Origin: an uncultured bacterium
Lineage (GTDB): Bacteria; Bacillota_I; Bacilli_A; RFN20; CAG-826
Reading direction: 5' to 3'
Length of the DNA stretch: 64,000 bases
Assembly: GCA_949297305.1 (NCBI GenBank)
Contig: CASFSG010000025.1
Span: 12,574 to 76,573 of the forward strand
Both the position numbers and the translations under genes were made by a program. Below, piece by piece: positions 15,102-18,432 of this stretch. Position 1 is the first letter of the stretch; each line of letters starts with the position of its first letter. The notes beneath the pieces are model-generated. The model saw only the letters and a list, made by a program, of their open reading frames with translations. It was not told the DNA's origin and made no database searches.

Positions 15102-15617
15102 TTAATAGCAAATATAAATAAGATTTTCTGCAAACATAAAGCCATATCCATCTTTATCGAAGACGAATGGTCGTTTATCTTCCGCAATATTTAAGATATT
15201 TCCATGGAAAGCGAAACCTAAATCGCGCATTTTAAAATAGATATCATAACGGTCGCTAGTAAGGCTTAGTCCATAAAAGGTGATATTAGGATCAGTAATC
15301 ACAATATCACTAATGCAATAATCATTACTCGCGTTTCGATAGGTTAAATAGCAGACATATTCCTTAGGAAGATATTCTAACCCGTCATCTTTAATAACGA
15401 ATTCATAACTAACATCAAGATAATGTGGAATAATGTCACCTTCAATTAGAAATTCAGCGCACGCTAAATTGAATTCCTCTTCTTTAATTGTTTGATTAAT
15501 CCAATAACTAAAATTTGCGTCGCTTGGCTTATTAGCAACATCGACATGGTTATTATTACAAGATGATAAAATGGGTATTAACATCAATAAAGGAATAAGC
15601 TTATCTTTAATTTTCAT
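15102..15617 (-). CDS. small lipoprotein, paralog B of the island pair; unknown function
   Basis: The track ORF starts at a TTG (15632). ATG at 15617 gives the canonical signal MKIKDKLIPLLMLIPILSSC (lipobox ILSSC). The mature part aligns with the 15607..16017 product (KPxDxNxxYW, YxFxI..G.E..P..YV.Y, I.I.DP.I..Y, M.D.GF). Confidence 0.7.
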   Translation of the reverse strand: MKIKDKLIPLLMLIPILSSCNNNHVDVANKPSDANFSYWINQTIKEEEFNLACAEFLIEGDIIPHYLDVSYEFVIKDDGLEYLPKEYVCYLTYRNASNDYCISDIVITDPNITFYGLSLTSDRYDIYFKMRDLGFAFHGNILNIAEDKRPFVFDKDGYGFMFAENLIYICY

Positions 15618-16017
15618 ATATTCTTTGAACAATTATTGTTTTTCCTTTCTTAAAATAAATTGATAAATAGCCATTATTGCCGGTATAATCATAAATTCCA
15701 CCACCTTCAAAGCCAAAATTATCCAACATAATTGAAACTTTCATTGGGCTAGAATTAAGACAAAAATTATATAAGACAATCTCAGGATCTTTAATCTCAA
15801 TTGTGTCGATGACACCATTTTCAATTTGATAAGAAACATAAGTTTGAGGAAATTCTTGTTCACCTTGTTCATTAATAATAAATTGATAATCTCCATCTAA
15901 ATAAATATTGCTATCGAGATATTGTCTTGAATCATCAAAACTAACCTTTTCACCAAGCCAATAATTTAGATTAGTGTCCCGCGGCTTTTCTAAGTGATTG
16001 CAACTAGAAACACTCAT
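15607..16017 (-). CDS. small lipoprotein-like protein, paralog A; its export signal is cut off by an in-frame TAA (possible pseudogene or cytoplasmic restart form)
   Basis: 136-aa ORF starts MSVSSC. The same frame upstream reads ATG(16056) MKKILLLILPL-TAA(16021..16023)-A-MSVSSC, which is a complete lipoprotein signal peptide apart from one stop codon. Confidence 0.6.
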   Translation of the reverse strand: MSVSSCNHLEKPRDTNLNYWLGEKVSFDDSRQYLDSNIYLDGDYQFIINEQGEQEFPQTYVSYQIENGVIDTIEIKDPEIVLYNFCLNSSPMKVSIMLDNFGFEGGGIYDYTGNNGYLSIYFKKGKTIIVQRIYEN

Positions 16018-16020
16018 CGC

Positions 16021-16056
16021 TTAGAGGGGTAATATCAATAACAATATTTTTTTCAT
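16021..16056 (-). other. detached signal-peptide fragment (MKKILLLILPL-stop) of the paralog A lipoprotein gene
   Basis: ATG at 16054-16056 is preceded by GGAAG 8 nt upstream. Eleven sense codons are followed by TAA at 16021-16023, in frame with the 15607..16017 ORF. Confidence 0.7.
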
Positions 16057-16059
16057 ATC

Positions 16060-18282
16060 TTATGCTTCCATAATAGGACTTACACAATAAAATCCTACAA
16101 AATTTGTATAATTTAATTCATCACTATATTTGCGATTACATGTTTCTGGATCTAATATTAATTCACTACTATAATCTAAATTTGTAACATCGGTCGTTCC
16201 AGGCTTATGCGACCATGTACCATCGGAATTTTGACGATAAAAATGAAAATCATAATCTGGATTTATATTGCTGCCAGCAAAATTAACATCATCAACCACT
16301 AGAGCGATTTTATATGTACCTGGAGGGCAAATTTCGTTTTTATTAATCTCTTCAAAATAAAATTGATATTCAATCGAATCTGCTCTAATCAAATTAACAA
16401 GAAGTTCAATATTAGGGATATCTAGAACATTAATTTGTCTATCCAATGATTGGCCAGGAATGAATAATAGATTTTCATATTTCTCATTCGGATTCCTTTT
16501 CGCGTTTAAAGCATAAGAATAACAATTTGTCCAACTTGGAAGAAGTCCAGTATTCCACTCCCAAGGAAAATAATCTAATTCATAACAAGATAATGGCATA
16601 TTATAGTTAGATACATAAAATTTAATATCTCCAATGCAAATACGGCCTTTATTGTTATCGCCTGTATGTTCACCATTATAATCAGAATAAAAGCGAATAC
16701 GATATGCAGGTTGATTAAATTCAATTTCATAAGTAGTAGGATTATTTCTGTCGCGAGGCAAAGCTGTTTCTGGTGATAATAAGTCAAAAATAGGGATCCA
16801 AGTTCTTCCGATATACTGCTGTAATACAGCGTTTCCATTGGTATCATCGAGCAATTCACTAGTTAATTCTCTCCAGTGAGACAATTCAACATCCATTCGT
16901 GTTATTGCTCTTGGAAATCTAAATTCAATAAAGGCGTAATCAATGCCATTTCTAATTGGTGACATCACGATATATTCATTATGGATATAACCAGTACGAT
17001 ATCTTCTAGTTTCAAAAGTAAAACCATTTACATTATGTTCAATGTAATTCTCTTTGATATCATCGGTGACAGGGTAAGCGTCAGCAAAGCCGTACTCGTC
17101 AGGATGGACGATTGAAATTGCATAATCATTTGGTTTGGTGAATTGTTTTTCACACCAATAAGGGAAAGTTGGTCCAGAAACGGTTGCGGTAAGTGATAAT
17201 CTAATATAATAGATGCTACTACTATTGCTTAAACGAGCGTTATGCCACTCATCGCTAGTTAATGTCCATTTATTTTGGTCAATAGTCCTAGAAGAAGGAA
17301 CATTTTTGTTATTATCTAATATTTCAAAAACAATATAAGTGTTATATTGGATAAACCATTCCTCTTTAAACAAACTATTCCATTCAAATGTCGGCCTAGA
17401 TGTAACATAGTTGCCACTAGTTAATTCAATATTATTTGGATATATTAAATGAGACGCATTATAAAAAGCATCTTTAGCAGCTAAATTCATTGGGAGATTT
17501 AATCTTAAGGTCACAGCATATAAAATTTCGGAGTAAGTCAAATCATCCAAAGTTACATGCGTTAACGCTTTATTATTTACACTATCTCGCCAACCACTAT
17601 GAACATAAATATCTCCAGTTAAAAAATTATAATCATAGGCAATTACTGCATGAGCGGCAGTTGTCGTAGTATTTTTAACATACAAAAGAGTAGGAACGCC
17701 ATCTTTAATATTTTCGATTGTGTGTGCTTTTAAATTTGCCATGTATCTATTTTTGACTTCTACAGATACTTCGCTAGTTGTAAAATCGTTATAATCATAT
17801 AAATAATATTGTAAGAAACTTTGAAGTTGAGAAATATTTAAAGAAAGATATTCTTCATCCATCGAATCAAAATATAAGTAAGTAAAATAATTTTTTGCTA
17901 AGTCAATGAGCTTAGCTTGAAAATAAACACCACTATTATTGGCTACCCATTCAAAATATTCACTTTCTAATAATGCGCTTACCGAATTCATCGGTTCAAA
18001 TTTAATACCAGGAGACGGGGTAGATAACGGAATTAAATAAAATGAATTGTTTATTTTATTTGAATTAAATGTAGCATTTTGTTCATAAACATTCGGAACG
18101 AAATTATCATCCCAATATGTGTCATAATAACTAAGTAACATTCCAAGTGAAACAAAAGCACATGTACCGTGAGTGTTATTGCCAAAATTATTTTTTAAAT
18201 TAAAGAAATAATGCGACGCATAATTATCTTCTAGATATAAAGTATTATCCTGCTCAGTAATTAAAGTATTAAACAAAGTCAT
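16060..18282 (-). CDS. large exported-type protein with an N-terminal clan-CA cysteine-peptidase-like domain (C39-like/C10-like), central beta-rich region and a second C-terminal Cys/His module; signal peptide detached by an in-frame TAG
   Basis: 740-aa ORF. N-terminal HGTCAFVSLGMLLSYYD (Cys41, codon 18160-18162), AAHAVIAYDY (His211) and VHSGW resemble YvpB/C39-like or streptopain-like peptidases. C-terminal WTNCYSYAL (Cys587, codon 16522-16524) and DYDFHFYRQNSDGTWSHKPG (His680, codon 16243-16245). The domain family is recalled from motifs, not searched. Confidence 0.65.
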   Translation of the reverse strand: MTLFNTLITEQDNTLYLEDNYASHYFFNLKNNFGNNTHGTCAFVSLGMLLSYYDTYWDDNFVPNVYEQNATFNSNKINNSFYLIPLSTPSPGIKFEPMNSVSALLESEYFEWVANNSGVYFQAKLIDLAKNYFTYLYFDSMDEEYLSLNISQLQSFLQYYLYDYNDFTTSEVSVEVKNRYMANLKAHTIENIKDGVPTLLYVKNTTTTAAHAVIAYDYNFLTGDIYVHSGWRDSVNNKALTHVTLDDLTYSEILYAVTLRLNLPMNLAAKDAFYNASHLIYPNNIELTSGNYVTSRPTFEWNSLFKEEWFIQYNTYIVFEILDNNKNVPSSRTIDQNKWTLTSDEWHNARLSNSSSIYYIRLSLTATVSGPTFPYWCEKQFTKPNDYAISIVHPDEYGFADAYPVTDDIKENYIEHNVNGFTFETRRYRTGYIHNEYIVMSPIRNGIDYAFIEFRFPRAITRMDVELSHWRELTSELLDDTNGNAVLQQYIGRTWIPIFDLLSPETALPRDRNNPTTYEIEFNQPAYRIRFYSDYNGEHTGDNNKGRICIGDIKFYVSNYNMPLSCYELDYFPWEWNTGLLPSWTNCYSYALNAKRNPNEKYENLLFIPGQSLDRQINVLDIPNIELLVNLIRADSIEYQFYFEEINKNEICPPGTYKIALVVDDVNFAGSNINPDYDFHFYRQNSDGTWSHKPGTTDVTNLDYSSELILDPETCNRKYSDELNYTNFVGFYCVSPIMEA

Positions 18283-18306
18283 CGTCTCACTATCGGTTAA
18301 ATACGC

Positions 18307-18432
18307 CTAAGCTCGAATATGCCTATCGGTATCGCTAATTGACGATAAGTTATTATTGTGAGGAATAAGACAAAAACTTAACGAAATAATTTGAATTAAA
18401 AATAATATAAAATTTGCTTTTTTATTTTTCAT
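18307..18432 (-). other. detached signal-peptide/lipobox fragment (41 codons then TAG) in frame with the 740-aa ORF
   Basis: Hand translation from ATG 18430-18432: MKNKKANFILFLIQIISLSFCLIPHNNNLSSISDTDRHIRA, then TAG at 18307-18309, then AYLTDSET, then the ATG at 18282. The distance 18432-18282 is 150 nt, so the frame is the same. Confidence 0.75.

Follow-up and report, generated by a model that had tools for sequence, protein, structure and literature searches.

Introduction

Secreted proteases of the papain fold that are encoded with a small gene for a dedicated inhibitor are known from the staphopain/staphostatin (C47/I57) and SpeB/Spi pairs. Staphostatins are cytoplasmic. They resemble lipocalins, and Spi is an analogue of a propeptide (PMC2873492). 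In Bacteroides fragilis, the C10 protease gene of the bfi1A-bfp1-bfi1B locus is co-transcribed with two flanking genes whose small products are predicted to be inhibitors; lipoproteins are predicted for the majority of Bfi and Bfp proteins, and mobile genetic elements carry some of the bfp genes (PMC2873492). B. fragilis also has a type VI secretion system (T6SS) pair, BteO-BtiO, in which BtiO is the immunity protein (PMC12541434). Here we analyze a block of three genes, called A, B, and C, that occupies positions 15102-18432 of a 64,000-nucleotide stretch of DNA (the window: contig CASFSG010000025.1 of assembly GCA_949297305.1, positions 12,574 to 76,573) from an uncultured bacterium of the Bacilli_A lineage CAG-826.

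The block resembles the Bfp/Bfi loci in that a clan-CA, SpeB-like protease gene of a gut bacterium is abutted by small co-oriented lipoprotein genes, and it shares with staphopain/staphostatin and SpeB/Spi the pairing of a papain-fold secreted protease with a dedicated small gene. An earlier note made from the window alone had suggested, as a hypothesis, a new system; the arrangement is not of an entirely new kind, because a protease with adjacent lipoprotein inhibitors has been described for Bfp/Bfi (PMC2873492). Unlike the Bfp proteins, the gene A protease is fused to two β-sandwich domains and to a second Cys/His domain, DUF7689. The B and C proteins have no similarity to staphostatins or Bfi, and comparative data link them at least as strongly to DUF7689 as to the papain-like head. 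The host differs also, being a monoderm or wall-less Bacilli lineage, and DUF7689 proteins occur in phages beside a holin gene, and the domain in giant viruses. B and C differ from staphostatins and Spi in being exported lipoproteins, and no homology with either could be detected. A third comparison is with pairs of the BLIP/BamE type, namely β-lactamase inhibitory protein (BLIP) and BteO-BtiO (PMC12541434): one partner family found in this work, c5, matches BLIP, BamE, and BtiO, and orphan partners persist, whereas B and C are not detectably BLIP/BamE-like and gene A has no T6SS, type VII secretion system (T7SS), or RHS delivery domain. The cassette is a clan-CA protease with dedicated small partners, joined here by DUF7689 with its lipoproteins. 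With moderate confidence, we favor the reading that gene A encodes a secreted bifunctional hydrolase, and that B and C are its cognate surface immunity or inhibitor lipoproteins.

The three-gene cassette

Genes A, B, and C are minus-strand genes in the same orientation between plsY (14052-14780, plus strand) and yneF/UPF0154 (18800-19027, minus strand); yneF/efp lie on the far side of gene A, and plsY is convergent with gene C. Gene B starts 4 nt past the gene A stop codon, and gene C overlaps the end of B by 11 nt. The features of the three genes are as follows.

18310..18432, minus strand: detached gene A signal-peptide segment, 41 codons (MKNKKANFILFLIQIISLSFCLIPH...), continuous with gene A in sister strain L086.
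18307..18309, minus strand: in-frame TAG splitting the gene A signal from the mature part; GAG (Glu42) in the intact sister allele.
16060..18282, minus strand: gene A main open reading frame (ORF), 740 aa, a multidomain secreted enzyme, here without its signal peptide.
17488..18282, minus strand: clan-CA C10/C39-like cysteine peptidase domain, A residues 1-265; Cys41 codon 18160-18162, His211 codon 17650-17652.
17137..17436, minus strand: small all-β immunoglobulin (Ig)-like domain, A residues 283-382, from the secondary structure of the AlphaFold2 (AF2) model.
16612..17118, minus strand: β-sandwich resembling a jelly roll or carbohydrate-binding module (CBM), A residues 389-557, from Foldseek.
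16063..16599, minus strand: DUF7689 domain, A residues 562-740; Cys587 codon 16522-16524, His680 codon 16243-16245; Asp703 near-invariant.
15607..16056, minus strand: gene B, a lipoprotein of 149 aa when intact; remaining ORF 15607-16017, 136 aa.
16021-16023, minus strand: in-frame TAA in the gene B signal; TTA (Leu12) in other strains.
15102..15617, minus strand: gene C, an intact lipoprotein of 171 aa, lipobox ILSSC; ORF 15102-15632, likely start 15617.

Gene A encodes a Sec-exported protein of ~790 aa with four modules, which run from a C10/C39_2-group cysteine peptidase through an Ig-like domain and a CBM-like jelly roll to DUF7689. The 41-codon signal-like ORF (18307-18432 including the TAG) is in frame with A, a single TAG standing between them. 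Its signal is of the Sec type and lacks a lipobox, so that gene A itself is not predicted to be tethered, contrary to the surface-tethered enzyme that had been pictured from the window. The AF2 model (pLDDT 85.4) has four domains, of which residues 1-265 and ~562-740 are α/β, 283-382 is β, and 389-557 is a β-sandwich; the β-rich stretch proposed to separate two Cys/His regions comes to ~275 residues of β structure.

A search among 5.8 billion proteins gave 146 relatives of gene A, most of them 770-810 aa long and 40-47% identical over their full length. They come from gut and rumen metagenomes, and most have no assigned name; their metagenome-assembled genomes (MAGs) are labeled uncultured Mollicutes, Anaeroplasmataceae, Acholeplasmatales, Erysipelotrichaceae, or ‘Bacilli bacterium’. 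In all 33 full-length homologues C41, H211, D217, C587, and H680 are invariant, and the two Cys/His pairs (Cys41/His211 and Cys587/His680) picked out in the earlier note therefore hold throughout the family. The full-length profile had no matches among PDB sequences, and a whole-protein Foldseek search returned β-sandwich matches only, which are uninformative for both heads.

Lipoprotein partners of related enzymes

Pairing was surveyed in 61 non-redundant related loci, contig-end loci being left out and lipoprotein signals being called by a heuristic. A same-strand lipoprotein ORF abuts the enzyme gene in 38 of the 61, whereas of the 404 ORFs that served as background there only 21 have a lipoprotein signal (Fisher p=7e-25), and the gap between the two is often -39 to +30 nt; the protease-lipoprotein co-occurrence envisaged in the earlier note is thus found in related genomes. 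The partners fall into at least 12 clusters, between which hhalign detected no mutual similarity, and they belong to no Pfam family.

The association extends to genes that encode DUF7689 by itself. Beside stand-alone DUF7689 genes in metagenomes, a lipoprotein ORF lies ≤120 nt downstream in 25/77 cases and upstream in 1/53, the background being 5/363. The main partner family at these genes is c5, which also follows the four-domain homologues of loci L011, L015, and L022, and which matches Pfam BamE/DUF3862, BLIP in the PDB (E=2.5e-4), and BtiO (E=1.8e-3). Another family, c2, follows DUF7689 proteins whether the N-terminal head is a cysteine peptidase or a trypsin. Downstream of the phage genes for trypsin, jelly roll, and DUF7689 there is a 272-aa lipoprotein that is a fusion, with c2 at residues 27-147 and c7/c9 at 153-261; the c7/c9 family is otherwise found beside trypsin plus jelly-roll proteins without DUF7689. 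The phage version has one partner domain per enzyme head.

A mirror-tree comparison of nine loci with partners of the B/C family (cluster c1) gave r=0.90 for partner vs DUF7689 and r=0.84 for partner vs N-domain (partial r 0.67 vs 0.40); with so few pairs, which moreover are not independent, this is weak evidence. Taken with the adjacency data, a specific binding relationship between the enzymes and their partners seems likely, and the same observations point to DUF7689 as the target of the downstream lipoproteins, whose tie to it looks at least as strong as that to the papain-like head. For the B/C family proper, DUF7689 may be proposed as the target by analogy. The idea of two heads served by two inhibitors is not borne out as a rule, since most two-headed homologues have one partner and some have three.

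The N-terminal head and the β modules

Families C10, C47, C39, and C39_2 have been placed together in papain-like cluster I (PMC10318531). Gene A by itself matches Peptidase_C39_2 at E=0.42 (11.6 bits, below the 24-bit cutoff) and the NCBIfam family NF045837 ‘Mplas_Cys_pep’ at E=1.4e-5 (25.1 bits, below the curated 45-bit cutoff), the latter an uncharacterized family. Its N-domain relatives do better: 36/53 match Peptidase_C39_2 (best 5e-8) and 11/53 match Peptidase_C10 (best 4e-9). Across the 53 diverse N-domains N36, C41, H211, and D217 are invariant. In the AF2 model Cys41 stands at the N-terminus of helix 41-58 and His211 within strand 210-219, so that the hallmarks of clan CA (Cys at a helix start, His on a strand, Gln/Asn upstream, and Asp/Asn downstream) are all present. 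The best PDB match of the N-domain profile is the C10 protease interpain A, which is marginal at E=0.019, with an alignment spanning the ‘HAviAYDY...GW’ His motif. We accept the N-terminal head as a clan-CA peptidase of the C10/C39-like papain fold, as had been read from the window, and predict that it is proteolytic. The mycoplasma MIB-MIP and CysP systems were also considered, and no domain match supported them.

The jelly roll resembles CBM51 at the level of fold only (Foldseek against 2vng, prob 1.00, TM(target) 0.47; against 2ygl, prob 0.99), and further Foldseek matches were to the β-sandwiches of GH2 and EndoS domains, Vip3A, and birnavirus VP2. It is the most conserved module of the family, at ~50% identity over all five of the architectures described below. 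The linker that follows the peptidase domain has the pattern ‘HxHxxNYxSxxGxxxCACxY’ in most homologues; at window 17400-17480 (A ~268-295) the Cys pair has been lost in the window lineage, NAS replacing CAC, and the window allele is also shorter there by the six residues YHSSNG.

The DUF7689 head

Searched alone, the window protein falls below the reporting level of Pfam DUF7689 (PF24738) and hence below its curated cutoff. The PF24738 cutoff of 22.6 bits is passed over the aligned region by two full-length homologues, with 31.6 bits for P0016 and 26.7 bits for P0069, and through these homologues the C-terminal ~175 residues of gene A can be assigned to DUF7689. The family is uncharacterized, and a literature search for DUF7689/PF24738 found no paper mentioning the domain in the library searched.

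A DUF7689-domain profile search retrieved 348 proteins, including one annotated PF24738. Most are secreted or lipoprotein forms in which the domain stands alone; they are 150-330 aa long and come from many groups of bacteria. A ricin-B lectin domain is present in some. In a set of 57 diverse DUF7689 domains, which includes phage and giant-virus copies, C587, H680, Y590, W690, K693, P712, and Y725 are invariant and N586, R683, Q684, and D703 nearly so. The dedicated AF2 model (pLDDT 90.4) puts Cys587 at a short helix and His680 on a strand. Its top PDB matches, all sub-significant (E≥0.07), are cysteine peptidases: PaJOS, of the Josephin type (E=0.07, prob 0.12), USP36, and PeiR. A putative catalytic Cys-His(-Asp) center would be the natural reading of these residues. 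The earlier proposal of a double papain-fold thiol peptidase stands for the N-terminal head; a papain fold for the C-terminal head did not gain a significant PDB match.

DUF7689 also changes places with other domains. Five architectures were found: C10-like + Ig + jelly roll + DUF7689 (the gene A type); a ~915-aa form in which an additional β domain and a matrixin (M10) domain take the place of DUF7689; a ~750-aa combination of trypsin (S1), jelly roll, and DUF7689; and two shorter forms, one of ~610 aa with C10-like, Ig, and jelly-roll parts only and one of ~570 aa with trypsin and jelly roll only. The slot of DUF7689 can thus be filled by a known peptidase domain, and this speaks for an enzymatic ‘second head’.

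Giant-virus homologues in BFVD include two unnamed entries (E=2.5e-12) and a Hokovirus protein (E=1e-5), and stand-alone DUF7689 occurs on giant-virus MAG contigs (L103-L130, IMG/VR GVMAG). Confident structural homologues among predicted giant-virus proteins are BFVD F2Y2U4, M1HB16, and A0A1V0SF80, all uncharacterized. In every protein examined, fused or stand-alone, the motif ‘LP(L/T)SGxE(L/V)xYxPxxWN’ precedes DUF7689, and in the stand-alone proteins it comes directly after the signal peptide or lipobox. This motif, which may belong to the fold or serve as a site of processing, lies at 16576-16587 in the window (A ~566-569), where the allele has Cys for Gly (PLSC).

In phages and prophages the trypsin-type gene has a regular setting: a holin (phrog_13712, E=5e-27), then the secreted trypsin + jelly-roll + DUF7689 protein (741 aa), then the 272-aa two-domain lipoprotein, with a tail-protein gene upstream (L088:2311-6032; L027:3120-7000; L093-L102, about 4100-7850 each). 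A separate endolysin gene was not seen between the holin gene and the trypsin + DUF7689 gene, and the latter might encode a lysis enzyme or be a gene for lysogenic conversion.

Genes B and C

The first reading of B and C as paralogous lipoproteins is sound: in blastp they match each other with 28% identity (E=5e-14), and each carries a lipobox, VSSC in B and LSSC in C. The gene B frame from 16056 reads MKKILLLILPL, a TAA stop that the earlier note overlooked, and then AMSVSSC. A word-index homologue search with gene C recovered only itself, and an exhaustive search was needed; this search, of 1.84 billion proteins, placed B and C in an unannotated family of 243 representative clusters. In each locus sampled, genes of the family were either downstream of a protein with both heads, in 1-3 copies, or orphaned.

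Copy number varies. Three tandem paralogues are found in L012 (7257-8970) and two in L223 (2791-3854); in L010 (7206-8570) a C-terminal fragment of the protease gene is duplicated along with the partner, and L005 (9115-9592) has partner gene fragments. Partner genes thus expand and decay locally. A B/C-family domain is also present at the C-terminus of a homologue of CPBP/Rce1-like membrane proteases and inside an RHS-repeat protein (P0323, 453 aa, and P0333, 1182 aa). The CPBP/Rce1-like family is associated with bacteriocin immunity.

Strain variation and decay

The TAG in window gene A and the TAA in gene B both recur in the independent assemblies ERZ17292902 and ERZ16268138, which excludes sequencing error. 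The genetic code is standard and the in-frame stops are real, because all three stop codons terminate long ORFs of the window (TAA 32, TGA 7, TAG 4); this usage, with the sister codons GAG and TTA, likewise excludes an alternative code or readthrough. In sister strain L086 (ERZ16268179), which is ~98.4% identical across the region, the site holds intact versions of all three genes: A of 796 aa (P0122; GAG for TAG), B of 149 aa (TTA for TAA), and C of 171 aa. Gene B is intact in three further samples.

Relative to L086, window gene A has 9 nonsynonymous vs 3 synonymous changes, including E42* and G622C (the latter in the conserved PLSG motif), and an 18-nt in-frame deletion (YHSSNG) near residue 270, just upstream of the Ig-like domain. 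This substitution pattern is near-neutral and compatible with relaxed selection, although the numbers are small. Both nonsense mutations (Glu42 to TAG in A and Leu12 to TAA in B) cut off export signals. With A and B thus deprived and only C intact, the cassette is decaying, and by now mostly inactivated, in the window genome.

Another lineage (L090/L092, ~90% nt identity) lacks A at the site but has intact B and C, in the order yneF, ~117-nt spacer, B, C, plsY; the spacer holds a hairpin-plus-T-run and a -10-like box and is promoter-like. Between L086 and L090, dN/dS is 0.28 for B and 0.14 for C, values that indicate purifying selection, and B and C are therefore maintained without a cis-encoded A. 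Orphan immunity genes are known to persist without the enzyme gene. Retention of B and C without A at the locus fits orphan immunity. The two independent nonsense mutations in export signals, with C left intact, agree with a course in which the effector was lost recently and one redundant partner then eroded.

In the same comparison, synonymous divergence is 0.11 for B, 0.28 for C, and 0.21 for plsY (window equivalents 14052-16056), and 1.00 for efp and 1.08 for parE in the flanks (window equivalents 11995-13947 and 19045-19602). The low values in the B-C-plsY segment relative to its flanks suggest a recent recombinational exchange of that segment.

Function of the lipoproteins

On the reading that we favor, gene A would be secreted as a bifunctional hydrolase, and its jelly roll would guide it to a substrate or surface that bears glycans. 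Anchored to the producer membrane on its outside, B and C would bind and neutralize the enzyme, an immunity or inhibitor function that would protect the producer and, through orphan copies, strains without A as well. The downstream lipoproteins would be matched to the DUF7689 head, instead of or besides the papain-like head. The likeness to polymorphic toxin/immunity loci raised in the earlier note is partial: an adjacent partner, diversifying partner families, and orphan partners are all found, whereas a dedicated delivery domain or secretion system was not found. Gene A has only the Sec-type signal; it had no delivery-domain Pfam match, and no T6SS, T7SS, RHS, or LXG delivery domain was found in it.

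A number of results weigh against this reading. About a third of the 61 loci have no recognizable adjacent lipoprotein, although several of these were misses of the heuristic. Pfam gave no match, staphostatin families included, for B, C, or 53 partner proteins; the B/C-family profiles (13 and 60 members) found nothing relevant among PDB sequences; and hhalign detected no relationship between the B/C family and c2 or c5, the latter being BLIP/BamE-like. At the sampled loci where B/C-family genes follow an enzyme, that protein always carries both heads, and for this reason the assignment of B and C to DUF7689 draws on analogy with c2 and c5 and on the weak mirror tree. For DUF7689 itself, Foldseek gave no PDB match at E≤0.001, and the case for catalysis comes from invariant residues and domain swapping.

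A wider proposal can be put forward tentatively, as a possibility that we would not press. DUF7689 may represent secreted Cys-His(-Asp) hydrolase effectors not recognized as a family before, every member being encoded with its own downstream immunity lipoprotein of one of several unrelated folds, among them the BLIP/BamE-like fold. The family would be spread over bacteria, temperate phages, and giant viruses, and would be fused to C10-like or trypsin-like proteases in gut Mollicutes-like Bacilli as two-headed exoenzymes; in their phages, where it comes right after the holin, it would perhaps serve as a lysis enzyme or as a lysogenic-conversion weapon.

One alternative, in line with the earlier note, is that B and C are inhibitors of the staphostatin/Bfi type that act on the N-terminal papain-like peptidase, possibly one per head, and guard the cell against the premature activity of a double thiol peptidase at its surface. 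The N-terminal head is indeed C10/C39-like, and C10 and C47 protease genes are known to be transcribed together with neighboring genes for small inhibitors, among the latter those for the lipoproteins that flank bfp1 (PMC2873492). Lipoprotein genes also abut the genes of relatives that lack DUF7689 and have only the cysteine-peptidase head (300-620 aa); these lipoproteins, however, are of other, unrelated families and are often encoded upstream. Moreover, c2 and c5 track DUF7689 whatever the N-terminal head, and partner number does not track head number, there being mostly a single partner and, for one homologue, three. The staphopain/staphostatin comparison drawn in the earlier note holds for gene order, an adjacent co-oriented small gene being present, and fails for sequence: B and C are not similar to Staphostatin_A/B or to PDB entries 1NYC and 1OH1. 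We consider this alternative unlikely.

It seems rather more doubtful that B and C are accessory factors, either a surface dock for secreted A (via DUF7689 or the jelly roll) or lipoproteins for its maturation or folding. Lactococcal PrtP has such a maturation lipoprotein in PrtM. The tight operonic adjacency of enzyme and lipoprotein genes would suit this role, as would the combination of an A protein that has a Sec signal and no anchor with lipid-anchored B and C proteins, and the high conservation of the jelly roll over the architectures. That same conservation would predict a conserved dock, yet the partner families are many and unrelated, and the partners have no rotamase/PrsA-like signature. 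An accessory role also sits poorly with B and C that stay intact under purifying selection in a lineage without A at the locus, and with the resemblance of c5 to an enzyme inhibitor and an immunity protein; the Cys/His residues of DUF7689, invariant family-wide, argue for catalysis over docking.

That the three genes have no specific functional link and are co-inherited cargo of a small decaying island, as the nonsense mutations in A and B and the 9 nonsynonymous vs 3 synonymous changes plus a deletion in A relative to the sister strain might suggest, is highly improbable, since the adjacency recurs far above background in dozens of distant genomes, phages, and metagenomes with unrelated partners, and since enzyme and lipoprotein match domain for domain in the phage version.

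If the reading of A, B, and C as effector and neutralizers is right, DUF7689 gains a testable role, as a Cys/His hydrolase with a cognate lipoprotein neutralizer in bacteria, phages, and giant viruses, and the protease-plus-inhibitor theme of SpeB, staphopain, and Bfp would extend to uncultured gut and rumen Bacilli. A modular rule of one partner domain per enzyme head would follow. The three allelic states (all genes intact; A and B export knockouts; A absent with B and C kept) would constitute a natural experiment on effector-immunity dynamics in a gut lineage that is uncultured, and the proteins would be candidates for the degradation of host glycoproteins or competitor surfaces.

Genomic context and flanking spacers

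The block is an accessory, strain-variable cassette of an uncultured low-GC gut/rumen Bacilli (Mollicutes-like) lineage with the standard genetic code, and in other genomes the cassette occupies different genomic contexts. In the window it is flanked by two long spacers.

18433..18799: AT-rich spacer on the gene A side, 367 bp, from yneF to the gene A start; GC 0.165-0.225, the presumed promoter region.
14781..15101: AT-rich spacer on the gene C side, 321 bp, from gene C to plsY.

These spacers, with GC down to 0.165-0.23 vs 0.328 for the whole window, and the three ORFs between them have the extents and coordinates first assigned to the island. The gene A-side spacer contains only weak sigma-70-like matches, with no enrichment over shuffles. 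In the 321-bp spacer (14781-15101) neither a terminator nor a repeat was convincing, and the few terminator-like matches all fall outside the two spacers. An Rfam scan of the whole window gave zero matches. A mobile-element signature was looked for, in a search that did not cover tRNAs, and no convincing flanking repeats were found. Gene callers also mark an ORF of 34 codons in the very AT-rich spacer that precedes A (window 18587-18691, minus strand); it has no Rfam match and is present in every A-carrying strain.

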